DNA of 63,509 nt, counting the filler, from Kipferlia bialata (taxonomy: Eukaryota): assembly GCA_003568945.1 (NCBI GenBank). It is 4 parts of 4 records of this genome, joined end to end, with 100 filler letters (N's around TTAATTAATTAA, not from the genome) between each part and the next. Parts side by side here need not be neighbours in the genome. Positions count along the whole stretch, not along the records: positions 18,644 to 30,908 come from BDIP01000473.1; 3 more parts are not named here. One strand, written 5' to 3'. A program made the position numbers and the translations under genes. The notes beneath the pieces were generated by a model. That model saw only the letters and a list, made by a program, of their open reading frames with translations, searched no databases and was not told the origin of the DNA. Within the stretch, counting starts at the first letter, position 1. The number at the start of each line of letters is the position of its first letter. Below, piece after piece: positions 721 through 46,396 of the stretch.

Positions 721-3183
721 CTAGTGACTAGAGCGTGTGCACACCTCCTCCACCGGTCCAAGTGTCTCCACCACCTCCACCTCCATATCCTCTGAGGCTA
801 TATCCACTGGAAGAAGGGACTCTACACTACCCTTCTCTCCCTCTCCCTCTGTCTCTGTCTGTTGGTGCTTCTCCCTCCTCTGTCTCCAGCAGTTGATGAG
901 CGAGACTACAATGCTGAATGCAACAACTAGGACCAGGCTGACATACAGGATGTCCCTTCTGGCAAGGGCGGCCCAGGAGGTCCTAGGAGTAAGATTACGT
1001 AATACCATGAGAAAATTCTGCATGTATACTTGTACGTAGATACAGAATATTCAAAGAGGCCTGAATGTGAGATAACCCTCGTCGGACGTATACATAAGTG
1101 TGGAGTATAGGAATGAAGTATGGAGACAATGATTAAGTCGAATACGTACTTGTGGTAGAACCCCTGTATGCTCCTCTCCCCCTGGATCATGCCCTGGCCT
1201 GGGGGTCAGTCACAAGAAGTACTCATCGGTTACATAGAGTATGGACTAGAATACATATCCAAGTGTCAACCTCCTTCACATGCTATTGTGAGACCAAGCC
1301 CCACTGTATAAGTCTCATTACTATACCTGCCAGAAGTGTCAGGAAGTATTCCTCGGTTGTGTAGTAGCTGATGTAGGACTGCCTGCTGAGGAATGTCTCT
1401 ATGCTCAGGACAGGCTCAGAGACAGACTTGGATACTGTACTGTCTGTACTGTCTGTACTGTCTGTACTGTCTGTACTGTCTGTAATATCTGCACTGTCTG
1501 TACTGTCTGTACTGTCTGTATCAAGTGTCAGTCTGAACACCCTGGCCCCAGAGTGCACGGCACGGTACGAGGAGAAGTCGGTCTTGCCAGCTGGGTTTGA
1601 GAGAGGTATTGGTGGATATATAGTGACACTATTACAATATGTATAACATTTATGTATATCAATAGGAGGAGAAGTCAGTCTTGCCAGCTTGGGGTTAGGT
1701 ACTGAGGGATAGGGATAGGGGAAAAACAATTATAGTTACTCTTCTGATAATATTCTACTATAAACAGCAGTGCATATACTAGTAACATATGTGTATGTAT
1801 TGGATCCATACTCACCGTAGCAGAGGGACACTGGCCTGTCAGCACTGTCAGGTTGCACAGCCAGGGTGGTCTCCAGACAGTAGTTGTTGAGGTGGTCTGG
1901 GGTGAGAGACATTGTGGTATATGTACATACAGAGAGAGGGTGAGTAACCTGTAGATGTGGATGAGATGGTCTCTGGGAGACAGGTGAATAGCGGGTGAAA
2001 ACGGCACTGAGAGAGAGAGAGAGACATGTTTTTGGCATGTGACGTACCATGTCCCACACTGAGTACCCATGCATTGCCCATGGCATCTAGCAGGGCATCA
2101 AGCACATCTAGAGGTGAGGGATACATACACATACATACAAATGTGTATATATAGTCACAGAGAGAGAGAGAGATTCATCCAGCGGGGCACACTGGAGAGA
2201 GTATCGGATGGCCATACAGGCATCATTCTCACGTACCATTCTCCTTGGACGACCAGCACACATCCTCGCCCATCTTGCCATAGAACCTGAGATGAGGGAC
2301 TTCGAAGACGAAATGAAGTGGATATGTGTGAGCACATAACGTAGAGTATATATCACGAATCACGTACGCTGTCTCTGTGTCATCGTCTGGTGTCCACTGG
2401 GCGGTGGGGACTGACGTGAGACAAACACAAATGTAATGTAGTACTACCACTCCTATGACTATCTACAGGGTCCATCATGCTTAGAGTACACAGTAAGTAT
2501 ATATATATATATATATATAGTATCCACGTACTGTGCATGAAGCCCATGCTGGGTGGTATGGCCCCACTGACTGGGTCTGTGTAGGTGGATATGACATCAC
2601 GCACCCAGGACACCTGAGAGGTGAGAGAGATGTGTGCCTGGAATTGACTTTGATATTGTATCACCTATATATATAAATATATATATGTATATGACATCTC
2701 GAACCAGGAGACCTAGTGGAGAAGAGAGAGCCACGGAATATACAGAGTATCTATACATAGGCCAACTACACATGGGACCTGTGTATGCTCCAGACACCCC
2801 CATCTGGTAGCCTCTCCCTCGCACCAGTAGGAGTGGGTGTCGAAGGCCCAGACAAGGGCACCCACGGAGTCTGGGGTTAGTATATAAAGAAAACTATTGA
2901 ATATACATCTCTATCTCTAAACATATTTTGTCGTAAGTAGAAAATATTACTCTTGATATGATATATACAGCCACTCACACTGTTTGAGATGAGTATATAT
3001 ATAGATCATATATATACTAAAGAGACATACGTGTATATATACATATCTACTTGACCCTGCCTCTGTCATGATGGGTACACGCCCATCTCTCTCTCTCTCT
3101 TAGATCATATATATATACATGAAATATATATATAGTTACCCACCAGCCCCAGCCTCTGTCATGATGGGAGCCACATATTATCA

Positions 3184-3219
<36 letters not shown>

Positions 3220-4140
3220 ATATTTACATATCTATATCCATACCTGACCCTGCCTCTGTCATGATGGGCACCACATAGTCAGAGCCACGGCCCTGGGGGT
3301 GAGGGCGTGATCACAAAGCAGTATCTATGAAAAGACTATTGTGTATAAATGTAATATTAAAATGATCGCACCTCCGTACTGTCTGGTACTCCCATAGTCC
3401 CTAGGAACAGTGTCTCTGGGTCATCTCCTCCACACTCATCAAGCAGGGTCTGTAGCAGTTCCTCCCTTGCGTGAGGAGAGCTGAGTGTGGTATAAAACAT
3501 TCAATATACACATAGTATATATCATACATACATACAATATAGTATATTCACATGCGGTACCTCCACGTGTATGGTATCTCCCCTGCTGCATCACCCCTGG
3601 CCTTGTCGGACTCGTGGTTGCCTAGGGGTTAAGAGGTTATACAAACATTCACATACATACTATAAATATATATACATATATATATATGTAGTGTGGTGCA
3701 TATCGATAATGGAATATATATAAGGAACTCACCGAATGTGACCATGTATGGCAGTCCCAGCTCCTGTGTGACATACTGGCACACACGCACATGACCTGTC
3801 TTGCACTGGGGGTGAGGGGAAGCACCGTACATAAACAAGTGTATATAACAAATACACACACACACACATACACACACATACATATAGATAGATAGATAAA
3901 GAGAGATAGAGAAAGAGATACACAGAGAGCCCTATGTATAGATGCAGCTTAGTAAGCCAGAATGACTACCTGAGTGGTGGTGGACCCTGTGTACACGTCA
4001 AAAGAGAGGGATAGAGAGAGAGTAAGAGATACCGGCACATATATATTCATATCAACAATAGATACACAGTACCTGAGTGGTGGTGGACCCTGTGTACACA
4101 TCCCCTGTCACCACAACCATGTCGGCATCATACATCTCAG
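721..4140 (-). CDS. Calcineurin-like metallophosphoesterase, Dcr2/plant PAP14-16-28-29 type, with C-terminal TM helix (about 14 exons; 5' end with DxH motif missing)
   Basis: The spliced exons give the family motifs in order: DMVVVTGDVY (4073-4140), LPYMVTF|GNHESD, LVWAFDTHSY..WGCLEHTQ|VSWV, SMGFMH|IPTAQW, GEDVCWSS, VLSVGH|DHLNNYC..LCY|AGKT..GARVFRL. The last exon 721-982 encodes hydrophobic ILYVSLVLVVAFSIVVSLI and ends in TAG. Intron phases are consistent. Confidence 0.88.
1432..1520 (-). repeat. 9-bp tandem repeat (CTGTACTGT) encoding (Asp-Ser-Thr)n inside a phosphoesterase exon
   Basis: About 9 imperfect copies; the ORF track reads TDSTDSTDSADITDSTDSTDSTDSTDST. Confidence 0.9.
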
Positions 4141-10769: not shown

Positions 10770-11864
10770 TACACTGCCCTGGTCCTGGAGGAGGCACGGT
10801 CCCTGGGGGTTAGACATGTATGTATACATGTTACCGATTATATATATATATATATATATATACCTAAACACTAGATCAGTAGCACAGGCCTAGTATGTAT
10901 ATATCGTGTACACTACCTCATAGTGAGTGATGCCGCCATGCTTGGCTTGACATTCCCTCTCTTGACAGGGGTATCAGTCACACCTCGGATGGGGACAGGG
11001 ACATCGCCAATGCGCCTGGCATTGGGGATATAATAGAACAGAGATAGAGTGTGTGAGTGAGAGAGGGAGTCATTGAGAGAGAAAGAAGGGTACCAATGTC
11101 ATCTTATCAACATGGATGCAAAACACAGGTCATAGGAGGGATACAGATACTGAGGAATGATATATAAAGACAGGGATGTGTCACTGACTTAGGAAGACTA
11201 GTATATGGGATATGTAGGGGTACGGTAAGGGGAAGAGACCCCCATGTAACAATGATACATGTGCTTGTTAAGTACAAATACATATCATCACATATTCACA
11301 AAGGCACTAAAGAATTGCACACAATAGGAAGTAGCTATGAATGTAGTCAGTGTGGAGTGTCATTGCACAGTACCCATACCTATCAAACACCAACAGAGAT
11401 GCCGGAATGTCCACTGGCCCAGGCACAGCCTCCAGCTGGTCATGCACCTCTCTCTCCATCTCCCTCTCCCTCTCCCTCTCGGGTCCCACCAGCCCCAGGG
11501 GGTTGGGGTCGTGTGCCCTGCGTGCTGACCGGGTCCCTGGCCTCCCACTCCGGCCCCTCTCCCTCCTCTCTATGGCACCCACTCTCCCTCTGTCTCTCCT
11601 GGTGCCTCCCCTGGTCACGGGTCTGCCCCCACGTCCAGTGGAGGTACCAGTCGCACCAGAGCGTGTCCTAGGGCGCCCTCCCCGGCCCCTGCTTGCCTTC
11701 CTGCTGCTCCTGCTCCCCTTCCTGGCAAAGAAGTCGGCCAGGGCAGGGTCACGCTTGGGGTTGTACTGCACAAGCCGGTCAGTCACCTTGACAGAGTTGT
11801 CAAAGCCAGCCTCACGGGCCGCTATGGTGTCTATGTACGCCTCATAACTGCGGGCACGCGACAT
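4713..11864 (-). CDS. Hypothetical protein, about 19 exons, Arg/Gly/Ser-rich N-terminus followed by a helical region; 3' end not found
   Basis: ATG at 11864 (MSRARSYEAYID...), first exon 11380-11864. A phase-consistent exon chain follows, e.g. LARTVASIKRLWDILG|FPDVERECVLSML, SLVRETVFLSKRHWVRL, GVVDQVIAAEIERD, EVSEACMSPG (4713-4772). The LWDILGFPDVER segment loosely recalls CCDC87/MAP65-type helices (weak). Confidence 0.75.
8590..8630. repeat. 9-bp tandem repeat ACATTCGCT x4 (intronic)
   Basis: Directly visible in the sequence. Confidence 0.85.
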
Positions 11865-12200
11865 ACGAGCGAAAAAGTGGCTCGGAAATGAAAGTGTGCT
11901 CACAGCTGTTCGGTAGGAACCTCTACCGCTACCAGTCGGTCAAAGACGACGATTAGCCCGCACTGGTGTGTTACCACGCAGAACTAGGCTCCCCTGACTC
12001 CGGTATGGCCTGAAAGGAAGGACCAAAATCTGATACTGAATTTATGAAATCGGACCCTTGCTGGTCTGCTTTTCCATTCACTCTCCCCCTCTCTCTCTCT
12101 CTCACTCTCTCTCACACACTATCCTTCCTCCTACTGACACTGGCGTCCTCACAAGTGCATAGGTGGAAGTGACATAAATGTGGTCTCCCTCTCACCCCAG
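11865..12200. promoter_or_regulatory. Short head-to-head intergenic region, probable bidirectional promoter
   Basis: A minus-strand ATG at 11864 and the first clear plus-strand exon at 12201 are under 340 bp apart. The start exon of the plus gene is not resolved. Confidence 0.4.
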
Positions 12201-18543: not shown

Positions 18544-18642
18544 NNNNNNNNNNNNNNNNNNNNNNNNNNNNNNNNNNNNNNNNNNNNTTAATTAATTAAN
18601 NNNNNNNNNNNNNNNNNNNNNNNNNNNNNNNNNNNNNNNNNN
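18544..18642. other. Artificial contig linker (N run + TTAATTAATTAA + N run)
   Basis: Six-frame-stop spacer flanked by Ns, identical at three places in the window. Confidence 0.95.
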
Positions 18643-18687
18643 NTATACTACACAGTGCATACATACCATTCTTCTAATATGTGTATA

Positions 18688-20860
18688 CCTGCGTCCACTG
18701 CGTTGTGCCACTCACTGGCCAGGGGGCCCTTAAGTAGGTCACCGATGTTCCTGGGTGTTAGATATCCACCATTTCGGTGCAATACAATGGTGATAGTGTA
18801 TATCATTACTATCAATAGTGTACATGTAATGCAGGTGGGCCACTGAGGAGTGTACACCCAGCCCAGCATATACAGTCATACTTTAAATACTGTGACTGTG
18901 TAGGTATGTGTATATACCTTGCCCTCTTAAGCAACTCCACCACAGCCGAGTCTGCCCCATCTGCTGTGCATACATATAGTATACACACAATATATATACA
19001 CTCATAGTGTATACTATATATACGTACCTGGCTCTCTTTAGCAATTCCACCACAGCCGAGTCTGCCCCGTCTGCTGTGCATCTACCCAGTCGGTCGGGCT
19101 CATCCTCAGTGGAGCCTAGGTATCAGGATACAACGCATATATACAAGTAGTCGTTTTGAATGAGTGTATTGATACAATCCAAAGAACATGAGTATGAGTG
19201 GCACTGTTTCGCTGACTTCAATACAAGTAGATAGATAGTCAAGAGTACATTATTATAATCATATACCTAGTAACGATGTGAGTATGAGTGGCTCTGCCTT
19301 GCTTGCTGCCAGTTCACTCAGCCACTGCTCAATGCCCTCAGAGACACCTGGGGGAGTCAGTCACTAATCTAATGAAAACAGTCACTAATATAATGATTAC
19401 ATTCGCTCAGAGACACCTGAGGGTCAGTCACTAATCTAATGGATATATATATAAATATATAGCGCCGCTAGCTAATTGATACTGACACCAATCTACTGGA
19501 TTCTGACTTGGACCCATTGGGAACTAGACCAATTATAATGAGTGCGTTACGGATACCATCGTGTATTGTTACCTAGCCACACGTCAATGTCCAGTTCACT
19601 GGCATAGGTGGCCCCAGCAGGGCCATTCTGACAGGTAAGATAGTCTAGTACAGGAAACTCCATCAGCTAGCAAGAAGTGACATACCATAGGTGTGTATAC
19701 CTCTGTACTACGGATAGCGCATATAAACATGTATATATATGAATGTCTCTGGGCGCGCATACCTCTGTGTGTGATACCGCAGCCACTGTGGTTGCCTCAC
19801 TGCCCCTGACATTAAGGGTGTAGAGAGGGAATACAAAGGGTGTAGAGAGGAATATTGAGGCTATGCACAGAGAGGATGGACAAAGGTACATATACTAGTG
19901 TTGGAATGACCATAACAAGAGTTTAGATACCTATATATACATATACATATACCTAGATACATCTGAAAGTGTTGGTGGGAACTCCACTGTCTTCTGGTGG
20001 GCAGGGGCGGCCTGAGGTTAGTATATATACATAGAGAGAGAGAGAGAGAGATGGAGATGTAACTATATATATATATATAGAGAGAAAGGATACTGTCTTC
20101 TGGTGGGCAGGGGCGGCCTGGGGTCAGTGTATATGAATCTCCGTGTAGAGGAAGATAGAGAGGGAGAGAGAGGGATGCTCCAGTCTTCTGGTGGGCAGGC
20201 TTCATACAGGAAGACAGAGCGTATGTATCTAAGTAGTACCGTTGGAGACACGTGTGTACATAAATTCATGGATATATATATAATACATATGGAGAGAGAT
20301 AGACAGAAATATAGATGGTACCTTTGCAGTTGGTGACACTTGGGTGGACACGGGGACTGGGGTGAGTATAGAACTAGAATCAATCTCTGTATTTGTAGTA
20401 AGTACGTTGGAATAATCATGATCCATCGGCATAATGTACAATTAATGGGTATAGTACCTGGCGTGATGCGTCTCTTGGCCCCTGGGGTGGCACTAGTGCT
20501 CAGCTGGCTCTGGGGGTCAGGTACATACAACCCTATACGTTGTGACTGTACATATAGTATACATGTAAATATCAATACCTTAAGATCCAACAGAGAAGCT
20601 CTGAGAGCACTAATATCATACATTAATATCCACAAATATTTGCAAAGTATCATATAAAATACCTGCACATGCAGTGGCCAGAAGGGGACAGGTCACATAC
20701 ATACACACGCATATATATATATATATATATATATATACGTATATATGTATATATATATAAGTATACTAATACCTGCACGTGTAGGAGTGATGCCCTGACC
20801 GTGGCCAGAAGGGGACAGGTCACATGGAGCAGAGTGGCCTCGCTACATGGTTAGCTAGAT

Positions 20861-20898
<38 letters not shown>

Positions 20899-23800
20899 CA
20901 GGGTTATATAGAGGCAGGAGTAGAAAGAGATATCCACCCAGGTAATTCACCACACAATATCATTATATCTATATATACAAAGAGATATAGATAGGGATGG
21001 AGAGAAGGACACACTACCTAAACACCACGTTCTCACAGACCCTGGGCAGTGACACCCTGTTGACTAAAGGGTCTAGGTAGGCACGGTTGGTGTTTCTCTC
21101 ATAGGCACTGAGGACGGAGCCTATTGGTCAGAGTAACTAATATATCAATACACGTACATATGTGAGACAGTCCCCGAGGCATAACAAGTCACCTTGCAAA
21201 GTACCCTTTCTTAATACATATCCTCATCGCAACAATATTGTGGTCTTAAACAAGTGATTGAATAAACACTCAAAATATATATTCATATCAAAAACAGATT
21301 CATATACTAAGCAACGTGAACCTGTGACATCTCTCTCTGAACTCATATTACTTTTGTACACGTATTCCACTATACATAATGTATACGTATATTTAAACAA
21401 TTCTTGTACCTGTGACATCTCTCTTTGCACTGCTCCGTAAATTATTGATACCTAATGCTATACTTGCAGTAAGTATATATATACACTTAAAGTAAGTAAA
21501 TATATACACTGATATTGTACCTGTGACATCTCTCTTGGCACTGCTCTGGCCTAGAAGGGAGGTGCCCAGGCCTGGTGTGAATACAATATACACATGAAAA
21601 CTATATGCATATATATATAGAGAGAGAGAGAGAGGGAGAGAGAGGGAGACAGAGACAGACAGAGAGAGAGAGAGGTTGCAAAAGCAGGGAGGTGCCCAGG
21701 TCTGGCATTAGAGAGACACCAGTATTCATTAGTAGTAAATATACATATGTCTGCTGTGTAATGTTATATCTGTTAAACGAAGTACCTAGCCTAAGACTGT
21801 CAATCTCTGACAGTAGCACTGCATACTGGACCAGACAGGCACGGGAGGCACCCTGAAGTCATTGGATGGAGGTCATAAGATAAAGGATATGGAAATACTT
21901 ACAGTTATGAGTACTACAACTCTTGAATATGTAACATATAGAGTGACACACAACATAAATACACATATATACTACTACACATATACCTCCTTTGGGTCTC
22001 TCATGTACTCTGACAGGGCACCCAATATATAAACGTGCTATATATATATATATATACATATATATATAAATACTGAATACAGATCATATATTTCACTGAT
22101 ACCTCCTTTGGGTCTCTCATGTACTCTGACAGGGCACATATACATATACTAGTATACATATACATACATATATATTTACACATATACACAAATAAATATA
22201 TATATATATATATATATACGTATACTACTACACACCTCCTTTGGGTCTCTCATGTACTCTGACAGGGCACTCCTAGTGGACACCAGGATGGCCTAGAGTC
22301 ATGCATCAACAATAATTAAGTATCGTATACATAGAAGTGTTCTAACATGCATTGCACTTTAGATATACATATGACAGTGCACTCCTAGTGGAAACCAGGA
22401 TGGCCTAGAGTCAGACACCAAATACTAATTAAGTATAGTATATACATAGCAGTGTTCTAACATGCATTGCACAATATATATACATATGACAGTGCACTCC
22501 TAGTGGACACCAGGATGGCCTAGGAGTGAGATGCATAATATACTATGGTACTGTAAACATATATGGACTAATAAATATATACATAAGACAGGGCACTCCT
22601 AGAGGACACCAGGCCTGAGGGTAAGGATGTATACATATAGCTATACATCCTATGTATACATGAATACGTGATAAGGAGAATATGGCTTCCGGTGGTATTG
22701 GTTAGAGGGACACGATAACCTGTAGACACATTCATATACAAAATACTTCTAGTTGCACCTGCAGTGTTGGGGAAAAGGCCCTCACTCCAAGGGCCCTGTA
22801 CAGCTTGGTCAGGCTGGAGGTGAGAATACATTGATAGTATCAATATACTATAATAATATATTAATAGTAATAAGAGTATATATTAACATATATTAATAAG
22901 GGCCCTGTACAGCTTGGTCAGGCTGAGAGTGAGATACTAAAAGATATATCGTTTGGGTAGCGATATTGCTACTACCACATAATGTGTATTCAGCCCGAAA
23001 CAGTTTTGTCAGGCTGTTACAGTACCTCAGTAGGGCTATGGTGCTTGGGAACCTCATCAGCAGGGCATAGAGGGAGACAGGCAGGGCATCCTGGTCCTGA
23101 CTGAAGGCCTGATACAATGAGACTAATCTACTGGTACCAGAGAGGGAGTATATATACGAGTGTACATGTATACATGTGTATGTGTATACATGTATATATG
23201 TATATACTAATACACATACCTGCAGTGTGCAAGGAAGGGCTCTGAACTGGTCAGACCTAGCTGGGGGTCAGATGTAAACATGTACAAACATTTATGTAAA
23301 AGAGAAGAGTCAAGACTAATCCAACGATCCTGTACATGGTGCAACCATGGGTACACACATACGTATATTTCAATACATAAATACTCACTCTGTCTTGTGA
23401 CTAGTCCAATGATCCTGCACAGGATGCACCCGTGGATGAGGATGTACTGGCCAGTGCTGAGTGTAAGTGGTGTAAACACATATACCCAAAAATAAATGTG
23501 TATATATGTGTATATACAGAGATAGAGAGAGAGAGAGAGAGATGCACACGTGGATGAGGATGTACTGGCCAGTGCTGAGGTCAGCGGTATATAGATAGTA
23601 TAGGGGGGCAGATGGAGAGAGAGAGAGGATCAAAGGATGAGGATGTACTGGCCCAAGTGTTGAGGGATATATATATATATATATATATATATTCATATAT
23701 TCACATATATACCCACCCACCCACATACACACAAACACACATACATATAGATAGAGGGAGAGAAAACCAGGGATCAGAATCAACTGTGTGTTATACGTTC

Positions 23801-26071
23801 CGAAATTGCTTCTCCATCGTGCACCACCCCCATACACACTCAATTGAACATTTCCATAATAGTTGGTATGTAGTATGGTATGTAGTATGGTATGTAGTAT
23901 GGTTGAATGTAGAATGTGTGTCCATACCTAGAGTGCTCTGCCTCTGCCTGTTCCAGTGCCTGAGGTGAGATATGTGAACAAGACAATCCGATTACATATG
24001 AAATATCTGTCTATATATATACATACCAGTCCTCGGCTCCAGTGCCTGACGGTGGAAGACTACACTCATATGTACATAGTATATGAATGGTATATACCCT
24101 CAGTGAGATAATATGTATATACTATACCTGCACTAAACACGTGCACAACTGCACTGTGAGGTCTGATGCAAACCCCTGGTGCAGAGAGGGGGCCAGGCTG
24201 GATATGACACTGAAGAGCCTAGAAGTAAGTTGCAAACATTAGCTAGAGATGCTAAGAAGTAATATATCAATAGAATATGTACACTATTATACATTTGTGT
24301 CTAAATGTGTAATCATGTGGTAGAGAGGGTGCAAGGCTGGATAGGACACTAAAAAAACTGAGGAGTCAGTAAAATACTACTTAGAAGATTCACATAATAT
24401 ATGTACCTATCTGCCGCTGCATCCGTGGCACAGTGCCCATACTCATGTCTAGTGGGACCCATCAGACGCTCCTCCATCAACCTGATGTTAAGGGTGTAGA
24501 GGGAGAGAGAGAGAGAGAGAGAGATGAAGCTCCTCCACCAATATAGCAATAAGGGTGTAGAGGGGGAGAGAGAGAGAGGACTCCTCCATCAACCTGGCAA
24601 GAAGGGTGTAGAGGGAGAGAACCGTGGCGGTGCATCTCTGGATCCAAACAGTATCTATGTAACTGTATACACTCACCTCTTTCTCGACATGGCACTCTGG
24701 TCGATATACTCATTTCTATCTATAATACTAAATACTACTGAATACTACTAAATACTACTAAATACCACTGTATACACTCACCTCTTCCTCGACATGGCAC
24801 TCTGACCGCCCTCGCTGTCTGGTGGTCAATAAGAGTCAACAGGAGATATACATACTTGACAATGACAGGGCTGCCCTGTGCGTCTCTGCCACCAGTCTCT
24901 CTCTCTCTCCCTCTCTCTCTCTCTATATATATATATATACATACCTAGAAGTGATATGGCCGCCCTGTGTGTCTCTGCCACCAGTCTCTCTCTCTCTCTC
25001 TCTCTCTCTATGTGTATATATATATATAAATATACTTATATACCTAACAGTGATATGGCTGCCCTGTGTGTCTCTGCCACCAGTGTCTGTATCACGGCAT
25101 TGGACCACTGGAGAGTGTCCTAGATATTATGGGAGTGGAGAGAGAGAGAGAGAGAGAGAGGAGTAATGTTGTCAGTATATAGAGGGAAGAGAGAGAGAGA
25201 GGTAATGTTAGACCACTGGAGAGTATCCTAGAATATAGAGGGAAGAGGGAGAGAGCGGAAGTAAGATATACCTCATTAGTGGTAGAAGCACTATTGTATG
25301 AGTATAAAGATCCTAACCTGCATCTTGAGTCTCAGCAGGATGAGGGACCTCTTCTCAGGGTCCTGGGGGGTGAGTGACAATAATACATTCATGTATATAT
25401 GAATAATAATAATAATGTGTATATATATATATACACGTCTAAACCCTTCTCTGGTCCTGGTGAGTGAAATCTCCCATTGAACTACAAATGTGTATACCAT
25501 ATAGGTAGCAAAGAGACACAGTTATACCTCCATTCTGCATGCCCCAGCCACCAGTCTGACCTCACTGTCAAGGGCACGGGTCATCCTAGGGTAAGGGTAT
25601 ATATATATATACACCATATAGCACACGTCTACTATCACTCTATATATCTCTTTGACCCGACTGTCAAGGGTCATCATCGGGTGTTACGACCAAACACATA
25701 TACGATAATACTACTAATGAATTTGTATATTATAGATTTGTATATACATATGAATATAGACCTCACTGTCAATGGCACGCGTCACCAAGCGAGATAAGGC
25801 AAAGGGGAATACAAATATACATATATAGTGGAGTACATAGAATACACATTTATACAACGTCAAGGGAACGGGTCATGCCAGGGGGTTAGCACTCATCTGA
25901 ATTCAATTCACAAATATTCATTAGCCAGATATATATATACATATATATATTTATTCATATATCGCAAGTGAACTCTCTGTACCTAGGTAGGGTCGGCACT
26001 TGGTAGAACCTCCTCATATACATTACAAACCACGAAACAACAATAGTGAATATATAAGTTGTAGTTATACC

Positions 26072-26109
<38 letters not shown>

Positions 26110-28967
26110 ACTGTACCTAGGCAGGGTCGGCACTTGGTAGAAGCCCCTGTTGGACTTCCTCTCAGTGCCTGGGTCAGCATGACATCGATATACCAATACT
26201 ATATAGACATTTACACTACTATTACATACACATATACTATATATATGTAGATAGTACCTGTGCCCTGGAACGGGTGTATGATGGTGGGCAGGAGAGCACC
26301 GACAGGGGTGGCCTGGATTGTAAGAAGAGAAAGAGAGACAGAGAGAGAGAGAGTCCGGACAGGGGTGGAGTGGATTTTGAGAAGAGAGATAGACAAGGAG
26401 AGAGGGATGGACACAGATAGAGAGCGCCATCTGGGTGGGCAGAGAGAGAGAGAGAGAGTGCGGACACGACTGGTCTAACGGCAGGAGACACACACACTAT
26501 CTCTAAGTATAGCTAGGCCAGTGACTACTCTCTCCCCCCCTCTCTCTCCATATATATATACGTATTCATATATAGTTATATGTATACCTGCTCCTTACAC
26601 ACCCCAAGTGCTGTCTGGGCCAGTGACTGTGCAGTCTCAGAGGGGCAGATGACTAGATCAGTGTCTGTTATTAGTATTGTATATATTTAATATATACATA
26701 GAGAGAGAAAGAGATAGCAATATATGTATATATATATAGAGAGAGAGAGAGAGAAAGAGAGAAAGAGAGACTGTGCAGTCTCAGATAGAAATATGACAAG
26801 GTCGATACATACTGTAAGTAGTTGTATATTAATATAGAGAGAGAAAGAGTGTGGGAGAGTGAGTCCCACACTCTTCCAATGGACTAAAGAGTGGTTATAT
26901 AGAAACACTATATATACATATGGTGAAGTACCTGGAATGGGGCCACAGTAACTGGCGGCACACTCTCTTATAGCTGCACAATATTCAGTTATTGATAGAT
27001 ATAGATACACATACAAGTATATGGTATATATACATATGGTGAAGACCCTGGAATGGGGCCACTGAAACTGGCGGCACACCCTGCCAGTGCACACAGAGAA
27101 TAGATATAGATATATATGTACTAGTATATGGTATATATATATAGTATATAGTACCTGGAATAGGTCCTGAATAGCTAGCCGCACACCCTGCCAGTGCACA
27201 CAGGAAATATAGTAAGAGATACTTATAAAATATATATGTATATATATATATATAGTATATAGTACCTGGGATAGGACCACTGTAACTGGCGGCACACCCT
27301 GCCAGTGCACACAGACAGTGGAGAGGGAAGGGACAGAGGAACCTGAGTGAATTGGTGTAGGGGGAGAGGGGGGGAGAGAGGGTACACAGAATGTGCAGGG
27401 GGAAAGGACAGAGGAACCTAGGTATTAAGGGTGTAGAGGGAGAGAGAGAGAGAGGGGGGGGGGTACACAGACAGTGGAGGGGGAAGGGACAGAGGAACCT
27501 AGGTATTAGGGGTGTAGAGAGAGAGAGAGAGCACTGACGGTGTATAAGGAACGGCATCAGACTTAGAAAATGGATAGAGGATAGAGGTTGACAAAGAGAA
27601 CCCAAGTTGTAGTTGTGGGTGGTGTAGATATGAGTGAGTTACATACCAGCTGATGATGTGACCAAAGAGTACACCCACTGCCTCATGGGGTATGGGGGTG
27701 GGGGTGCTGGGTATGTCACTCTTGGGACCATTGTTACTGGGATGAGATTACTTAAATACATATATATATATGTACACTTATATATATATACACAAATGTA
27801 TATATGGGGGTGCTGGGTATGTCACCACCGCTGCCCTTGGGACCAGACATGCTGGGATGAGAATATACGTATACACATCCAACCTATTCAGCTATATTTA
27901 CATACCCAATTGGCATCATGCACCCAAAAATAGATGAATATTACAATTATACAATAAATACACACAGCGTCACAATATATGTATTGTTTGTCTTAACATA
28001 TATGAATTCATCCATACCCAAATGGCATCATGGACACACACACACACAAATATATATACATAATACCCCATAGATATAAATCTATATACATATATATCTA
28101 CATCCATACCCAATGGCATCATGGACACACATATATACCCATAATACCCCATATACATATATATATATATATATAAATGTAAATATACAAGTAGATATCC
28201 AAGTGTATATCCATACCCAAATGGCATCATGTATGAATACATATTCATATCTTCCCCATAGATATATATGTATACATACTAATTACACAACCCATACCCA
28301 AATGGCATCATGGACACATCCCCCAGTCCACCCACAAAGGACAGAGGGTCATCAGATGCAGTGGCCTGACATAAGGACCATTTATATGTATATACACATA
28401 TACTATATTATTATACAAAGGACAGGGGGTCATCGACAGGGGCAACAGTAGTCTGAGGTGAAAAGCACTATATATATCAATGTATACTGTATGATTATAT
28501 ATTCAAGCCCACAAAGGACAGAGGGTCATCAGAAGCAGTGGCCTGGTATTAGAACTGTAAATAGAAACTCTTAATATCTATATATTCATTTACATTGGTA
28601 TATACTGAATAGAGATAAAGAATAGTCCATCAGAAAGGACCGGGGGTCATCAGAATGCGGTGGGGGCCTGACATAAGCACGATACATCTACACTAAATAT
28701 GCGTGCAAATCACAACTTACGTTGAAGGGTGTAGTTTGGAAGTGGCTACACAAAGTATGATTATACATACGATTATATACTAAACATATACACTATAAGA
28801 GCAACATACTAATTCGTGAATATGTGTATAGTATTGAGTATACTGCATAATAACACACTATACTTACGTTGAAGGGTGCAGCTGGGAAGTGGCTGCTTGT
28901 GGTACTTGGTGTGATGTAGTCTCTGAGGAAGAGTTCCCTAAGGGCCTAGGGTGAGAGAGAGGGAGAC

Positions 28968-29001
<34 letters not shown>

Positions 29002-30367
29002 AGACTTAGTGATGTAGTCTCTGAGAAACAGTTCTCTACGGCCCTAGGGTGGGTATGCACAAATGTATAGAAAGAGAGAAGGAGAGAGAGAGTGTGTGTG
29101 TGTACCTTTGCAAGTGTGGATGAGTCAAAGTCAGTGGTTTCCGGGGTGGAGCCATCCTGCCTGGGGGTAAGCAGAGATGGGCGCAACATGCAAAGAAATT
29201 GTAAGGCGTATAGTATAGAGTATGTGGAACGATGTATTTACCAAAATACTGTTGCAATCAGTACAGTGCCTACACATACACATACACATATATATGTACA
29301 TTATTGTGGTTATATATCCCTGCACAGTATCCCCCTGGCTGCATATGTCACTTGGCATAGTATATATGTGTATATAGGCATATATGTATATACATACGAA
29401 CATATACACATATATACATTTATGTATATATATATATATATATATACATATATACCTGGACAGTATCGCCATGGCTGCATATGTCACTTGGCATAAAAAT
29501 ATATGAGTGTATATGTGTATATGTGTATACTTTTACATACATGTACTATATGTGTATACAATACATGTATTACCTGCACAGTATCCCCATGGCGGCATAT
29601 GTGACTTGGGCTGTGAAGTGCAGACGGTTCACCTGCCATTATTGGATGTAGAGGGGGGGACGGAGAGAGCGGGAAGGTTAGACACAGAGTACAGTAGCTC
29701 AACGTGACATTATCGGGTATTCAAATATACATATTCCACACTGTATGCCACCCCTCTCTCTCTCTCTCTCGCTGAATATACTAATATAGACACACATGTA
29801 ACACACACCATAGTTAGCCCCGCTGTCTCACAACTCTTTCCTTCTCTGCATACGTATACATATATCTGCTAATGTGTATATATTGACACACCTTATTGTA
29901 AGCCCCACATGCCTCACTACCGCGACCAAGGCCCTGAAAGTGAGGGTACTAACAATCCGACCACACCGTATTCACAACACATAATTACACTTATTCACAA
30001 AAATATACATGGTATATATATATATATATACATATATATGTCACTTGATCACTGACCGATATACACGACTCAATGGTCAAGAATGAAAAGAATCAATATC
30101 CGATACATGTATGTGGGTCGAACCGAATGCTCTTTCTCTCTCTCTCTCAATTAGCGAGATAGAGTAGTATATATTCATGCTAAATATACCATACCTGTGT
30201 ATGTGGATCGAACCCGAATGAGAAACTGGCAGGACGCTGGGGATAAGAGAGGGTAGAAAAAGGGAGAGAAAAACTGGCAGGACGCTGGAGATAAGAGTGT
30301 ATAGAGGGAGGGAGAGAGAGAGAGAGAGAAAAAAAAAACTGGCAGGACGCTGGAGATAAGAGAGGGT

Positions 30368-30422
<55 letters not shown>

Positions 30423-30598
30423 AAGACAAGAGCGGGACTCAGTAATTGACTGGTCTACGGAGTATGGAGAGAGAAGAATGAGAGTTCGTATATAGTTCAG
30501 AATATATATATTGGTGTGTAGCATATACCTTATTGAGCGTCTCTGATGCTGGGCTGTGTATGACATCGGAGGAGCCACTGAGATAGTCAATGGTGGAC
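18688..30598 (-). CDS. Large hypothetical, probably alpha-helical (HEAT/ARM-like) protein; about 33 short exons, truncated at both contig ends
   Basis: Continuous phase-consistent chain from STIDYLSGSSDVIH (30528-30598) through VNRLHFTAQVTYAAMGILC, FLCPFPLHCLCALAGCAASYSGPIP, LFSVISSLAPSLHQG, AFSQDQDALPVSLYALLMRFP and GASRACLVQYAVLLSEID to NIGDLLKGPLASEWHNAVDA (18688-18750). No family recognised. Confidence 0.78.
22268..22522. repeat. Tandem duplication of a roughly 115-bp unit made of an exon 5' end, its acceptor and intron sequence
   Basis: CACTCCTAGTGGACACCAGGATGGCCTAG...ACATATGACAGTG is repeated, with intron sequence also shared between copies. Confidence 0.85.
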
Positions 30599-30908: not shown

Positions 30909-31008
30909 NNNNNNNNNNNNNNNNNNNNNNNNNNNNNNNNNNNNNNNNNNNNTTAATTAATTAANNNNNNNNNNNNNNNNNNNNNNNNNNNNNNNNNNNN
31001 NNNNNNNN
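30909..31008. other. Artificial contig linker
   Basis: N run + TTAATTAATTAA (30953-30964) + N run. Confidence 0.95.
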
Positions 31009-31070: not shown

Positions 31071-34000
31071 TGAGTATGTAGTGGTGTCCTTCGGTCAGGC
31101 CCTAGTACTGATCAATGCCACATCTGGAGAGACAGTGCAGCGGTACCAGTGCAACAATGCAAAGGTATATATACCATGTATTGAGAGTGAGTATACAAGG
31201 GTATATGTATACCCCCTCCCTCACCACCCAGGCCCACATCACGGGTGTGTCCTTCCTCCCATCGTGTGTGGGTGAGTTTGTGACCTGTGACACAGGGGGT
31301 GTGCTGACGAGGTGGAGTGTTGCATCCCAGTGGCACTCAGAGGTCATGGGGGCATTGAGGGTGCCTATGCAGGTGGGTGGGGGTGTATATATGTAGCATA
31401 TCACATGTATATGTAGTATATCATCTGTAGTGCAAATTGTGTATAGTAGCGTACACTCGTACACTCCAACCCCAGGGTGTCGTTGCCATCTCTGTGAGTG
31501 CGACCAGTGAGATCAGTGCCCTCTCCCCCAGTGCAGGCCCAGACACAGAGGGTGCAGTCAACAACCTCCTACTGAGGCAGAAGGATGGGGGTATGGCTGT
31601 GTACTGTATGCAGCAGAGGAGGGTGGTCTATAGGGTGCCCCCTGCACACCAGGAGACAGTGTTCTGTGTCGCATCGTGCCCGGCTGACCCTAACCTATTT
31701 GCCACAGGTGCGCTGATGCCATGTATATGTATCATATGTATCAGCAGTGGCCGTCGTTATTAACTTCCGTCTCTCGCTTACTCGTGCATTCACCCTCAGG
31801 TTCATATGACGGCACTGCCCGTATATGGGACGTTGAGGTAAGGCGAATAGGTTCTACTAGTCTCTCTCTCTCTCTCTCTCTCTCTCCCCCCCCCCCACCT
31901 CCAGTCCATGTCTCTCAAGGCCGAGTGTGGGACAGTCATTCAGACCAGGAAGACAGGGTCCCTGGAGGCTCTAGGTGAGTGGGTGTTGAAGAGTCTCTAG
32001 ATTGTGTAGCGACTTCTTACCGCTGTCTCTCATCCATCACCTCTTACCCATCTCTGCCACTCTCTCTCTCACCCCAGGCGAGGTCTCCACTGTCTTCTCG
32101 GTGGCCTTCTCCCAGTGTGGCAGGTACCTGGCCACCGGTGACTCCACAGGCAAGGTGTCTGTGTACACCACTAGAGGCGTGGCCCTATCCTCCGTCCAGC
32201 ACCACTCAGGCCCCGTCTACTCCATGCGCTGGGTAGGGGGTGGTAAGTGTGCAGTGGTGCCTAGAAGCAGTGGCCCCAAGTCCCCGGCCTCCCCCAGGGG
32301 TGGGGTGGCAGCTGACACTGGCGTCATAGTCACAGCCTCTTTTGACTGCACAGTCGGGTTCCTCAGCTTCTCCCCCGACCCCGTACCCACCCTACGCTCC
32401 CTGGGCTGCATCCACACCCCCAAGCCATGCTTTGGGGTGGCTGTTTCACCCCTAGGTCTCACAGCTGTCTCACAGCAGAACGGGGAGGTACGTGTACCCA
32501 TGGCGGGTGTGTTGGGGTGATTGATACTACTCACTGATAACTAGTTTGTCTGAGGTACTTACTGTCAGGTGCTTGTGTACAAGTTCGATCCTGTGAAGGC
32601 TCTGTCCATCGCAGACAGCGTCCACTACCCCTCTCCCCCTGGTGCCTCTGGCCCTTCATCCTTCCCCACCTCCCCCACGAGTGTTATATCCACACACAAG
32701 TCGAGGGTGTTCTGCATTGAGTTCTCCCCCCACCATGGCCATATTCTGGCAGTTGGGTCGGATGATGCGTCTATATCAGTCCATGCACTCAGCTACGACG
32801 GGAAGGTGGGGTGGATAGTATGTATATATGTACTATATCACAGTACATGAGTTCTATGCGCCCTCCTTCTCCTACTCATCCTAGGACAGCAGCCGTGTGT
32901 GTGCTCTGAATGGCCACACCAAGCGTGTCCGTCCCCTCCTCTTCCACCCTGCCCTTCCCCATGTCCTCATCAGTGGTAGCTGGGATGGGACAGTGCGGGT
33001 ATGGGACTATGCCAGTGGGACATGCCTCCACACAGACTCACACTCTGCAAGGTACACACACTCTCCCTCTCTCCCTCTATTTATCTCCCTCCCTTCCTGA
33101 TCCCAGCCACGTGTATGGTCTGGCCGTCCACCCCGATAAGCCGTTCTCTGTCCTAGTTGCTAGCAGAGACCTCCTCCTGCGGGTGTTTGATGTACGGTCA
33201 GCCACCATCGGGGGTATCAGCCCCTATGCCGCGTGTGTCTCTGCCGACACCCCCAGTGATGTCCTGTCCTCTGTGCTCATGGATGCACCAGACGTAAGGT
33301 ACAGTCAGTGTATATATCATATATATATTACATATTTATTTATATATAGCATACTAATACCCATTCTGCCACTCATGATCAGGCAGATGAGGGCGTCTGT
33401 GGCAGGCAGGGGCTTCCCAGGTGCCGCCTGGGAGGGTGTGACTGGGGTAGGGGCTGGGAGGCTCAGCAGGTCGATAGCTGCCGCACCCGAGCCCGACCAG
33501 CTGGCCGCCCTTCTCGGGTACTTCCACCCCTCCTGTACCCATGCCCCTACCCTGGTGGTTGAGAGTACGGCCCATGTCTCACTAGACCAGTACAGAAGGT
33601 GGGTATCTATTAGCAATGTCTACCTCTGCCAATGGCCCCTCACCCCAGCTACTGTGCCGCCATCATCGCCCATGGGGTCAGGAGCATGCGTGCCCCCTCT
33701 ACCTGTGGGGCTGTGGTGCTAGACCCCGAGGAGGAGAGGAGACAGAGGGAGGGAGATAGGCTGAGGCGGCAGCGGTCTCCAGCCCGTCCCAAGTCCCCAA
33801 CCACTCCCCTACCCCCTGTCAAGAAGACCCTACCCCCCATCAACGCTGGGGCATCCGGGTCTCTCTCCCTCGCCCCCCTCTCCAGGTCCCCTGGGGGCCC
33901 AGCCCTCAACCCCATGTCTCCCCTCTCCCTAGACCTCTCTAGGCCCTCCTCTTCCACTGCGAAGCCCATACCCACTGGCACCTCTACCAATGTCACAGAC

Positions 34001-35635
34001 AGCGCCATAGACAGTGAGGAGATTGACTCTCCCTCCTATGTACTTCAGGCACTCGAGAGCCTTGTTCCAGACCTCCCACCCAGGGGGCCTAGCAGGCTGG
34101 TCCACCTACTCAACGTCTGTCTATCCCTATGCGTGGCATCCTTCGATATGCACTCCCTCCTCGAGCTCCTGTCTCTAGCAGGACAGCCCACCCTCGCTCT
34201 CTCCCTTGCCCCCATCTGCGTGTGGCCCTATGCCGCCCCTACCCCCTCTGTAGACGTGGAGAGGTACATGGGGGGGCCCTTCACCCCCCTCCCCAGTATA
34301 GTACAGGCAGCTAGGCTCCTGGCTGTGGGACGCGTTGCCGAGTCCGTCAAGGCCCTATCCGTAACTCTCTCCCACAGACAGTGTCTGGTGCTGGCAGGTG
34401 GCCTCACCTCCCCTGCTAGTGATGCCCTACTCAAGGGTGCCTCCCCCGAGGAGAGAGAGGCTCTGGCTGTGCAGTATGTCACGGGTGCAGCACGGGAGAT
34501 GTGCACAGATGGTCAGCCCATAGCAGCTGCGGCCCTTCTAGCCGTGTACCCCCCCTGCAGACAGGATGCCGTCCGTGTCCTGTTAGACTGTGGCCATCCC
34601 ACACTTGCCTATGTCGTGGCTACTGGCCTAGAGGATGACCTGGATGCAGAGGTGGAGGGGCAGCTCGGCGTGGTAGTGGAGGCCCACCTGGCATGTGCCG
34701 AGTATCTATATGCCACTGGTCTAAAGGAGAGGGCTGTGGAGATTGCAGAGGGTCTGTCTCTCTCTAAGCCTGAGTCTGACGATATAGTTGGGGTGGGTCT
34801 CTACCTGCGCTGGCTGCGTCTGCAGACCTCCCGTCCCCTGACCCCTGTCCCTTCTAGCCCAGGTACCCCTGCTGCCTCTCTCCCCACCCCCTGTGCTGCC
34901 ATGACCCCCCCTCTCTCCCTGGAGGAGGTGGGGGAGAGAGACTGGGTGGGGCTGGGCAGGTGTGTGCTGCAGTACATACAGGCAGACAACCTCCCTGCCG
35001 CTGTGCGTACTGCTCTCACAGCTGCTGGGCAGGCCGTCTCTGTCGACAGGACCCATGCTCTGACATCATATGTGGCACCTCTCACGGATGAGCCCAGAGA
35101 GCCCTTGTCAGTGTGTAACCTGGCCCCCGGTGCCCTCGCTGTCATAAGGTGCCTGTGGGGCACAGACATCACCACGGCCACATGTGCCGAGGAGCCACAG
35201 CTGACACTACTCTCTGCATACCTGGGTGGTATTGCGGCATATGAGCTGGGCAGTATCGGGGCTGCCCAGGTACTGTTCAATCGTGCTCTCTCTCTTGCGA
35301 AGCGCCTCCCGACCCCCGAGGCTGGCACCCCTGCCTCTTATGTCTCCAAGACTGACATCACAGTGAGACTGGCCGGGTGCGGCATGAGGCAGGGTAGCGT
35401 GGAGGCAGAGAGTGACCTGAGGATGATGGCCAGTGGTAAGGCGCACTCCGCCATGGTGTCTCTGATGCTTAAGCACGGGGCGCCCCCTAGTACAAGGGAG
35501 AGGGGGATGCCCATGGCCAACCCCTTCGCTAGGGGGGTGTCCACCTACGAGGACGTCCTGTCGATGGAGACGTCAGTCTTTGATGGTAGCATGCACACAT
35601 ACAAGTGCGGGTGCCCCTCAGTGGACTACAAGTAG
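31071..35635 (+). CDS. WDR17: WD40-repeat protein WDR17 ortholog (5' truncated at contig start; about 11 exons)
   Basis: HQETVFCVASCPADPNLFATG|SYDGTARIWDV, HKSRVFCIEFSPHHGHILAVGSDD, LNGHTKRVRPLLFHPALPHVLISGSWDGTVRVWD and HVYGLAVHPDKPFSVLVASRD match the WDR17 repeat series as I recall it. A long helical C-terminal exon 33649-35635 with an NPF motif ends in TAG. Confidence 0.82.
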
Positions 35636-37926: not shown

Positions 37927-40900
37927 TCACCGCTTGAGGATATCAGCGATGGTGGCGTTTGTGGTAGTCTTGGCCGACTGGGAACTCATACCGAGACCCC
38001 CCATCTTAGCTATCAGTGACTGCATGCCATCGGCCTCTGTCCCCACAGGTGCAGACCCAGGGGGAGACAGGCTGGTCTTTGCAGGCCTGGGTGGTGCTTT
38101 CGGTGCAACACTGGATGTCTCAGGGACACGTGGCCTAGCATCACCCCCTCTGGTTTCTCTAGAGTCTCTCGCAGGGGGTCTAGGTGGGGCACGAGGCTGG
38201 GCCTTTGGTGCACCACTCGATACACTACTAGAGGTGGGTCTAGGTGGAGCAGTCGGCTTCTGGACTACCCTATTGGGCTCAACCATGCCACTTCTCTCAG
38301 CCCTACTCAGCTCTCTGATGCCACGCAGCATAGCCCAACTCTCCCTACTCTCCCACCCAGACACATTTCCTACCACCACCAAGGCCTTCCTCGCTCTAGA
38401 CAGGGCCACCACCACCCTAGCACTCTCGCAGCTGAAGGCCGTAGGGGTAGGGGAGCAGAGGGAGAGGATGATTGCATCCGCCTCCAGGCCCTGGTACTCA
38501 TCGATGGTGGCAGCCCTCACCTCCTTAGTGTCCACACCCGCTGAAGATAGCATGCGGGACACAAGTCTGGCCTGCTTGCGGTATGGAGATAGGACAGTCA
38601 CCGATGATATCCACCCATCCTTGCTAGTCAGGATGGTCTCCACCAGTGCCACACACTCTCTTGCCTCCTGTTCATTCTCCTCCCTGCACCCGTTCCTCCC
38701 CTGTCTGATCCTTATACAGCTGACAGGGGGCAGAACCCTGGACCCACGTCTCTCCATCTTGCCTCTGGCTCTCTCCATCTCACCCACCCTGCCCCCGTCT
38801 CTGATTCTGGCAGGCACCTGACCCAGGGACACCAGGAGAGGGGTGTAGGTGTCACGCCACGTGTCTGCCAGCTCAGGAACTGCCCTACACTGTGTATCAA
38901 GTACAGTGACTGGGGCACGGGAGGCTACTAATCTGGGGGTAGGAGGTGGTGTACGATACATATACTATCAACAACAGGTGCTTGAAGCAAGTAGAGTGAT
39001 CTGGTTATCCCTTACCTGTGCAGCAGACTGAAGGACGCCCTAGCCCTACAGGCCAGAGAGGCATCCCTAATCAGAGGGGGTAGCTGAAGAGGGTCGCCTG
39101 GGGTAAAGTGGGGGGGGTCATGTACACGAGGTATGGTGATACTATAGCATGGTTGTGATCTATCAATATTATGTACCTAGTAGAAGGGTGTGCTTGGCAC
39201 ATGCTGACAACAGAGGCACAAGCTCGAGCTCTGGTATTCTGGCAGCCTCCTCTATGATCATGAGAGAGGGAGGACATCTGCTGTTGAGCAGACCACATAC
39301 AGACAGAGAGGAGACGGTACCGGCCATGAGACTGACCCTGTCGGCAACGTGCTTCCTAAATGCCCCTCTTCCCTTGCCTAGTAGGTTGAGAGTGGCCCTA
39401 GCCATATGGGCATCCTCAGGGGAGCAGCTAGGCAGGGGTTTGGCTGTTCGGAAGGGAGAGAGGTCGTCGAAGGGGTGGGACCGGTTGACTGAGAGGTGGC
39501 CTGTGTATGGCTCTAGGTCGTCCAGCACGGCCCCGACCCATGCCTCCTCAGACTGGGGGTGGATACCGCTCTCCCTCGTCTGTCTCCAGCCCCCACCTAC
39601 CCTCAGGGCACTCACCCCAGACAGCCCCATCACACTCTCTAGCATATGGTCCACAGCCCTGTTGGAGTGGGCACATAGGACTAAGGGGCCTCGGTTGGAG
39701 TGCCGCAGGGGTTCTCTCAGCAGGTCCCTGAGCCCTGGCCCCCCTGGTCTGGCCTGTGCCCTGAGGTATAGGGCAGATAGGGTGGCTGCAGTGAATGTCT
39801 TGCCACACCCAGGGGGGCCAACAATGACAGAGACGGGGTAGTGGAGAGCACGCACAATGGAGGCAACCTTAGTATGAGACCGTTAATGTATATATTGCAC
39901 ATCGGAGGTGGAGTTGATGATAAAGAACACGGAGAAGAGACGAAACAATGGGTCTACTAACCTGTGCCCCTGTGAGTGCGGGTGCCGAGGGCTCAGGGGG
40001 AGGCACTGTGACACCCAGGGTGGGCCCTCCCTTGATAGATAGGGTGGCCATCCGGTGGGTCCCTCCCTCTGCTGGTCCTGTGGACAGAGACACCTGGGAG
40101 GAGCGGGCACCCCTTCCCCCCCTTTCTACCCCTGCCTCTATGGCTACAAGACCCTCAGACAGTGGACCGACACCGGTACCAGGCATAAGGGGAGAGAGGG
40201 AGAGAGAGAGGGGGCTTGGGTCGGGTGTAACCTCTGGGGAGTAGAGCCAGGCCGGCAGGGGAGGAGGTGAGGACGCAAAGCCTCTAGTCAAGAGCAGTGT
40301 ACGCACATGGTTGTGGAAGAATGGGGGCATGATACCCACGTAGTATGCGTTCCCACTACCACCCCCGTCCTCCCTCCTGCTCTCTATCTTTCTGATCATC
40401 CTCTCACACTCCACATCGTGTGGGGCAGCGGGTGACAGGGAGACAGACAAGTCGAATGAGTCAGCATGCCTCTCCCTTTCCCACTTGCTTGTAGCTAGAC
40501 CTATACCACTCACAAGGCCGTCACTGTCGGTGCTGACAATCACTACATACCCGTCTCTCTCTCTCTCCCTCGGGTGGCCCCTGCCTCTCCCCCTCTCCCC
40601 CTCTCCCTCCTGGTACAGTCTCTCCACACAGAAGGTGTCACCTATGCGATCTGTGATCCTAAGGGGTAAGGGAGCAGTATGTTCATCCGTACACCTTCAC
40701 AGGATTACTTCCCCATTCACACCATATACATACTCATGGATTGGTACCCACCTGTGCCACTTCTCCGTGCTCCTCATAGCCGTACTGCCAACGTCGGAGT
40801 CAAGTTCCATGCCCCTCTCCCTCTCTCTCTCCCTCTGCTCCTCTCCCCCACTTGTCCACCCAGACAGTGCGTCTGAGAGAGTGTCTGTGGCAAATAGGAC

Positions 40901-44916: not shown

Positions 44917-45016
44917 NNNNNNNNNNNNNNNNNNNNNNNNNNNNNNNNNNNNNNNNNNNNTTAATTAATTAANNNNNNNNNNNNNNNNNNNNNNNNNNNN
45001 NNNNNNNNNNNNNNNN
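44917..45016. other. Artificial contig linker
   Basis: N run + TTAATTAATTAA (44961-44972) + N run. Confidence 0.95.
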
Positions 45017-45069: not shown

Positions 45070-45400
45070 CTGCTGCCCATGACATTGAGCATACTGGAGT
45101 GAGCTCAGATCTGCTTACAAACGTCAGGTATTGAGATAGAGAGAGAGATATAGAGAGATGATTACAAACGTCAGGTTAGAACGAGTAGAAAAAGTGATAA
45201 AGTCAGCGTTTCATATTAGTAATACGACTGTATCGTGACACTTTAACCCTCAGACACCCCCTGTACCTTGTATACACATTCATTTCTAGTATGTCACTGA
45301 GGTATACTCTAACCCTCAGACACCCCCTGTACCACCTGTTTGGCAGCACATCCACCTTTGAGAAGTTCCACTGCATGCTTGGACTCTTCACACTGAGGTG

Positions 45401-45438
<38 letters not shown>

Positions 45439-46210: not shown

Positions 46211-46246
<36 letters not shown>

Positions 46247-46354
46247 ACATACATATGTATGTATCTCACCCCAGAGTGTCTTTACCAGTATGGATGAGAT
46301 GGCACTACTATATATACAATATATATTTATATATACTATATATACTATATATGC

Positions 46355-46396
<42 letters not shown>

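Follow-up and report, generated by a model that had tools for sequence, protein, structure and literature searches.

Half-exon echoes in introns of Kipferlia bialata and a deep echo that may derive from a divergent coding copy

The window, meaning the whole stretch of Kipferlia bialata DNA analysed (63,509 nt, filler included), was modelled as six genes with 111 exons and 104 introns, one intron longer than 1,300 nt being left out. One model comes from the protein record P0001; the other five are predictions of a predictor trained on the P0001-based model, whose output was edited by dropping 15 exons that were doubtful or were echoes (exon-like pieces within introns), extending one and adding one by hand. 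Reading frames of the edited models are consistent save at one gap. The sequence TTAATTAATTAA between N runs at 18588-18599, 30953-30964 and 44961-44972 is an artificial linker, and the joins at these three gaps do not demonstrate adjacency. Predicted genes at 745-4140 (minus strand) and 45070-48323 (plus strand) have motifs that we take to resemble a metallophosphoesterase with a DST repeat and a cyclic-nucleotide phosphodiesterase, respectively; Pfam did not confirm these labels, and echoes are present in both. Genes at 31990-35635 (plus) and 37927-42373 (minus) are GC-rich and intron-poor, with WD40 repeats and an AAA_11/AAA_12 helicase, and local repeats are nearly absent from them; echoes accompany short exons and microsatellite introns. 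An intronless, Arg/Gly-rich open frame of 210 codons (11307-11939, minus), with no Pfam match, lies between two intron-rich genes. Unrelated genes also share an intron-end motif, a CT repeat followed by TACACCC(C/T)T(T)A with an AG nearby in most copies (19822, 24498, 24559, 27435, 27516, 45054, 60279, 60332, 60388 and 63468), which is possibly an acceptor type spread between loci.

The 40-residue read-through of one exon has a single protein match, K. bialata KIPB_002709 (P0001), whose residues 75-833 correspond exactly to 37 exons on the minus strand, from 30597 to 18689. The host gene (18689-30597, minus) is modelled here with 36 exons: the P0001 exon at 27498-27469 repeats the start of the next exon and was dropped. 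This upstream echo (27469-27498, minus) sits as an exon in P0001, where it yields a doubled FLCPFPLHC. Residues 1-74 of the record constitute a ketopantoate-reductase-like N-terminus (Pfam ApbA) whose exact 7-mers are absent from the window; P0001 is likely a fusion of two genes. A match to the Codanin-1 C-terminus (PF15296, residues 654-709, E 0.047) misses the profile's cut-off at 14.2 bits vs 27, and the exon of interest falls inside this weak match. The Codanin-1 name is a lead only.

The exon of interest is a live 70-nt exon at 20773-20842 (minus; EATLLHVTCPLLATVRASLLHVQ); it and the next live exon, at 20458-20509 (minus; SQLSTSATPGAKRRITP), are both present in the spliced contig X2 and in P0001. 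X2 is taken as RNA because it joins exons at CT..AC ends. The letters that it carries before 20512 match the live exon, and its coordinates require 259 nt, the summed length of the five exons between 21018 and 19627. The 263-nt intron that separates the two exons (20510-20772, minus) is a mosaic that runs from the donor through TA filler, the near echo, more filler and the deep echo to a last 69 nt and the acceptor. The deep echo (20579-20614, minus) consists of 12 codons that resemble the 3' end of the exon upstream, with its own AG|GTATTG donor and no usable acceptor. From 20614 to 20579 it reads ISALRASLLDLK, then GTATTG; the live exon end, from 20808 to 20773, reads LATVRASLLHVQ, then GTATTA, both in phase 0. 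Translation, phase and donor position are thus as the sequence-only reading gave them, and on re-comparison all five RASLL codons do differ silently. The two segments are identical at 17 of 36 letters, with 8, 1 and 10 differences at codon positions 1, 2 and 3, and at 5 of 12 residues (BLOSUM62 score 26). Third positions are A or T in 8/12 codons of the echo vs 3/12 in the exon, a composition that intron background would produce as well. The near echo of the same exon end (20663-20698, minus) has an identical first part, a 17-nt deletion, two changes in its last 11 letters, both at silent positions, and a GTATTT donor; the internal deletion had been recognized earlier, although the echo extends to 20698, one letter beyond the limit then assigned. 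Pfam profiles found no match in read-throughs of echo and exon.

An X1 DNA contig covers 20093-20693, deep echo included, with zero differences, although the window may itself derive from X1; its depth is 365, vs 365-413 for neighbouring long contigs. None of the X1 contigs listed bridges the TA repeat before the live exon. An assembly artefact is ruled out for echoes that lie within X1 contigs. The deep echo is not in the assembled transcript, as the single assembled X2 contig uses the live exon.

Is the deep echo an isolated curiosity? Throughout the window (745-63451) there are 138 exon-like matches, in 74 of 104 introns and in all six modelled genes, and 105 of them are anchored at a splice site. 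They were found with a codon-blind local aligner (score at least 28), which 0.8% of 2,644 non-cognate pairs pass. Half-copies exist for 69 of the 111 exons: 53 echoes are an acceptor plus the 5' half of an exon, located upstream of it, and 52 a 3' half plus donor, located downstream; the other 33 are unanchored. None of the 138 pieces is a whole-exon copy. All echoes lie on the same strand as their exon, 2-482 nt away, and donor halves precede acceptor halves in 13/13 introns having both, with 0/13 interleaved. With each echo an intron is 108 nt longer (r 0.86 over 102 introns), the echo-free median being 118 nt. Echo acceptors score 4.8 bits vs 6.4 for real ones and -8.7 for other AGs, and their flanks are 0.56 identical to those of their own acceptor (random 0.37), vs 0.92 for the exonic part. 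A like flank is seen in 1/13 mismatch-free echoes; over all anchored echoes, 5/105 flanks score at least 20 of 30 and 30/105 lie above the 95th percentile of the null, a sign of some residual flank kinship. In 63/105 cases the free end borders a TA- or GA-type repeat. Loss of the anchor is commoner in distal echoes (7 vs 1). The proposal that the distal echo is the more diverged one was not supported (9 vs 16, with 8 ties), and the rank order of echoes does not date them. At 22363-22519 and 62911-63077 the echo units have been duplicated in turn, the copies having similar flanks and an identical start point, which suggests secondary cis copying or carry-over with the donor intron.

Several individual echoes are of interest. 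A second deep echo in the host gene, an acceptor half at 22992-23013 (minus), encodes LTKLFRA where the live exon has LTKLYRA, and 5 of 7 codons differ, 4 silently. A chimeric donor-half echo at 27155-27203 (minus) equals the exon over its first 23 letters and then shows 9 silent and 0 replacement changes, including Ser AGT/TCA. The acceptor-half echo at 27806-27851 (minus) carries 9 nt inserted in frame and differs in its first residues (MSGPKGSGGDIPSTP vs NNGPKSDIPSTP in the exon). The half-exon echo system, present throughout the window, is a larger result than the single deep echo.

Were the donors of these pieces live copies? Mismatches between echoes and exons number 68, 58 and 208 at the three codon positions, with 199 silent and 131 replacement changes, and pN/pS is 0.20 (bootstrap over 59 exons, 0.15-0.27). 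For a copy that never had a function and lies next to an exon under constraint, the ratio cannot fall under 0.5; the observed value departs from this floor with P 3e-16, or P 3.5e-9 at a transition bias of 4, and therefore the pieces likely came from live, divergent copies of the same gene, as judged from the substitution pattern. Four-fold sites show 128 differences vs 31.5 expected from zero-fold rates, a ratio of 4.1 (P 2e-8 against 2), and the flanks are consensus-like but different, both in keeping with a live diverged donor. At transcript-checked exons, 10 echoes have 13 silent changes over 77 sites and 4 replacement changes over 226. Gene E by itself fails to reject 0.5 (P 0.28). A polarized test gave 50 silent and 33 replacement changes, with 18.9 expected; the 0.5 floor is relied on because that test misses isolation of the echo branch if copies differ in birth time. 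Silent distance ranges from 0 to 0.69 across 42 gap-free echoes, and the Ser codon family is switched in two echoes. Third-position differences over all anchored echoes run from exon GC to echo AT in 98 cases vs 48 in reverse, which reflects either decay of the echoes or GC-biased conversion of the live exons.

How might such pieces arise? The deep echo is interpreted as the 3' end of the exon from a formerly coding, deeply divergent copy of the gene, left as a relic by one-sided homologous repair; we put the probability of this at about 0.5. A break in an exon would be repaired from a homolog with matching exons and non-matching introns, so that pairing would occur in exons only. One broken end would copy the homolog's half of the exon, run through the splice site and enter the start of the foreign intron; unable to re-anneal, the extended end would then be sealed to the opposite one through alternative end joining (Pol theta). 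The product would be a whole exon, a piece of foreign intron and a half exon with its donor, and the mirror event would give the upstream form. The exon would be kept whole, and the displaced half exon and intron piece would persist as an echo of about 108 nt per event. Selection would remove whole-exon copies and acceptor-before-donor orders, and the remaining echoes would be tolerated since pairing of splice sites likely takes place across the exon. A partner at near species-level distance would be needed to account for how deep the deep echo is. One-sided repair agrees with the 105 echoes that are tied to a single splice site and have their free end inside the exon. A simple form of the model predicts even divergence along an echo, against which third-position differences are more frequent close to the splice site (83/347 vs 49/344; sign test 29:14, P 0.03), the proximal ratio being 1.7 vs 0.71-1.38 in simulations.

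The repair genes of the organism are pertinent here. According to the available text of PMC8516963, Ku is absent from metamonads, and its K. bialata entries include Dmc1, PolQ, Rad52 and Spo11, with none for Rad51A-D or Rad54. Dmc1 is described as stabilizing mismatched joints in the portions at hand of PMC6719624 and PMC5783719. In mutants of Caenorhabditis elegans, an extended homologous-repair end disengages and is rejoined by TMEJ to give duplications, the homolog being excluded as template (PMC13031629, as excerpted). K. bialata keeps XPF, Rad10, Rtel1 and Msh2 (PMC8516963, available text); these proteins normally prevent such products, which counts against the repair model.

Other explanations have to be weighed against an origin in a divergent coding copy. 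The deep echo by itself may be a coincidence, in which the peptide next to an AG|GTA of the intron happens to look like the exon end and was found while echoes were being sought, although this is improbable, and the window-wide system would stand regardless. Each exon end was scored (BLOSUM62) against every GT or AG site, in cognate and non-cognate introns. Splice-anchored peptide matches, which the sequence-only reading had proposed to compare with non-cognate introns, reach a score of at least 26 there at 0/5,313 AG|GTR and 6/130,226 GT sites; internal AG|GTR sites scoring at least 20 number 37/55 in cognate introns vs 5/5,313 in non-cognate ones. The best score of the live exon end is 18 against 1,173 non-cognate GT sites, and that of the deep echo site is 11 against 81 other comparable exons. 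Phase and donor position agree, and a second echo of the same exon end adjoins. What speaks for chance is an expectation of 0.057 matches per window (score at least 26, identity below 60%, both sides, any GT or AG), nine non-cognate matches of at least 26 among 225,877 comparisons (any GT or AG), one of them, scoring 27, in the same intron (20551), together with the A/T-rich third positions and a gap in identity: the next full-length cognate matches are at about 67-70%, with none between 47% and about 67%. Of the four matches below 60% identity at this score, three are nearly identical, short echoes that reach the 8-codon minimum through padding, and the deep echo is the sole cognate one that holds along its whole length. 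Its 7/12 changed residues compare with a pN of 0.05 for other echoes; it is the far tail of the divergence range of echoes, though separated by a gap. On these scores the deep echo is probably a real relic. That an old tandem copy of the junction, dead since birth, acquired its silent bias from selection on the live exon alone is very unlikely and largely refuted, to judge by simulation and the pN/pS floor: among 20,000 draws of a dead copy given 19 random changes, a score of at least 26 was kept in 0.13-1.8% and no more than one second-position change in 0.01-0.5%, although the minority of cis-like flanks speaks for it, as does the GC to AT excess at third positions, which decay would give. 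Both chance and neutral decay thus fit poorly, and the distant protein-coding donor lineage proposed in the sequence-only reading is favoured; other echoes in the window share the silent bias, some near saturation. A very old allele, its other suggestion, is tenable only if the exon was live for nearly all of its divergence, the old dead copy being rejected. Least probable of all is a selected alternative mini-exon of 31 nt, starting from the AG at 20610 and in the phase of the 70-nt exon. The frame would hold, both lengths being 1 mod 3, and it stays open through the 69 nt that lead to the next exon, but the AG scores -6.5 bits, weaker than 111/111 modelled acceptors, and the X2 contig has the letters of the live exon, although contigs drop rare forms.

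Could the donor instead be a paralog or homeolog elsewhere in the genome, copied ectopically? The ortholog-level distance would suit a paralog, and the assembly is fragmented, into 11,563 contigs (PMC8516963, available text). Such a source is nevertheless improbable, somewhat more so than coincidence, as six unrelated genes all carry echoes and each would need paralogs. No paralog or homeolog with the deep-echo peptide was found in the protein libraries searched, which, being word-based or of representatives, give weak blanks. In the library of representatives, the best 150 of 216 matches all fall in residues 1-123, a weak search in that the 75-833 part of P0001 itself was not returned. Homologs of the host protein were likewise not found: region 600-720 returned P0001 only among 341 candidates, region 640-700 occurred in none of 7 candidates among shorter proteins, 19 matches in solved structures were all N-terminal, and the protein atlas gave no usable match, all weak blanks. 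A metagenome scan gave six loci, all rejected: four, when translated, are read-through of a TA repeat, and the other two match that part of the query alone. A donor sequence thus turned up in none of these protein and metagenome searches. X1 lists no variant letters at a likeness of at least 88% over 18644-23100 (25/30 bins covered), and a 1,236-nt X1 contig is unbroken across five exons. No close second copy of the locus is evident. The same divergent donors may also have acted through another geometry, an idea we consider about as doubtful as coincidence. The break would lie in the intron and the echo would be the incoming piece, made by snap-back priming in the exon and a switch to the homolog, or homologs broken at offset positions would be joined with overlap. 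The greater likeness of the free end to the live exon, the chimeric echo at 27203-27155, which is identical for 23 letters and then saturated, and the many free ends at TA- and GA-type repeats favour such a course; an extra template switch would be needed in most events, and the loss of anchors in distal echoes looks as if new pieces enter beside the exon.

The echoes differ from known types of duplicated sequence. Mutually exclusive duplicated exons are whole, have both splice sites and are spliced in. The deep echo resembles them in its protein-level conservation and saturated silent sites beside a sister exon; in contrast, it has a donor without an acceptor, the AG at 20610 being too weak, and is absent from the assembled transcript. 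Dead junction copies and boundary-spanning VNTRs are unlike the Kipferlia echoes, where 199/330 changes are silent, pN/pS is 0.20 and flanks are not copied. Closer are the Pol theta tandem duplications of C. elegans tnsl-1, brc-1 and helq-1 mutants (PMC13031629, as excerpted), in which an extended homologous-repair end is joined and adjacent DNA duplicated; the setting is also alike, as K. bialata has PolQ and no Ku in the entries available from PMC8516963. Echoes, too, lie head-to-tail beside their source, on the same strand and within 2-482 nt. In the worm, however, both copies are of one haplotype with no contribution from the homolog, and the duplications of the tnsl-1 mutants measure about 25 and 300 kb (same excerpt), whereas Kipferlia has units of about 108 nt at 69/111 exons of a wild genome, with silent-site and flank differences. 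One haplotype, flanks included, as a sister chromatid would provide, does not accord with the pN/pS of 0.20 or with like flanks in only 1/13 and 5/105 echoes. Heterologous recombination of the Dmc1 type also bears a likeness, as invasion of diverged templates can yield templated duplications (PMC5783719 and PMC6719624, in the parts available). It arises on loss of RTEL1, BLM or BRCA1 and is polq-1-independent in worms, and the available text of PMC5783719 does not describe splice-anchored half exons or intron growth.

Among the matches listed in the literature searched, there is no description of a half-exon echo pattern, and echo-driven intron growth is a route not found there. The main text of the genome paper (PMC5874029), as far as available, contains no word starting with 'duplicat', 'heterozyg' or 'ploid'; it reports 124,912 introns in K. 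bialata. If the window is typical, much of the intron length is exon debris from other lineages. The public record P0001 counts the echo at 27469-27498 as an exon, and therefore echoes mislead gene callers. The spliceosome keeps 87/174 proteins, with no snRNA candidates in the available text of PMC6679479, and as echo splice sites are about as strong as real ones, splice-site choice becomes testable in a reduced spliceosome.

A wider reading, offered tentatively and with less confidence than that of the deep echo, is that Kipferlia lengthens its introns with fragments of alleles from other lineages, through Dmc1-only, Ku-less repair that accepts partners up to species-level distance. If this is true, exon ends have been swapped and the displaced halves left behind, the genome is a layered fossil record of lost alleles, the deep echo is the trace of a cross-species donor, and a reduced spliceosome ignores more than 100 strong decoy sites per 60 kb. 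The echoes would then provide a natural test of a Dmc1-only repair system and, from one genome, indirect evidence that a free-living fornicate outcrosses and exchanges alleles very widely or with other species.
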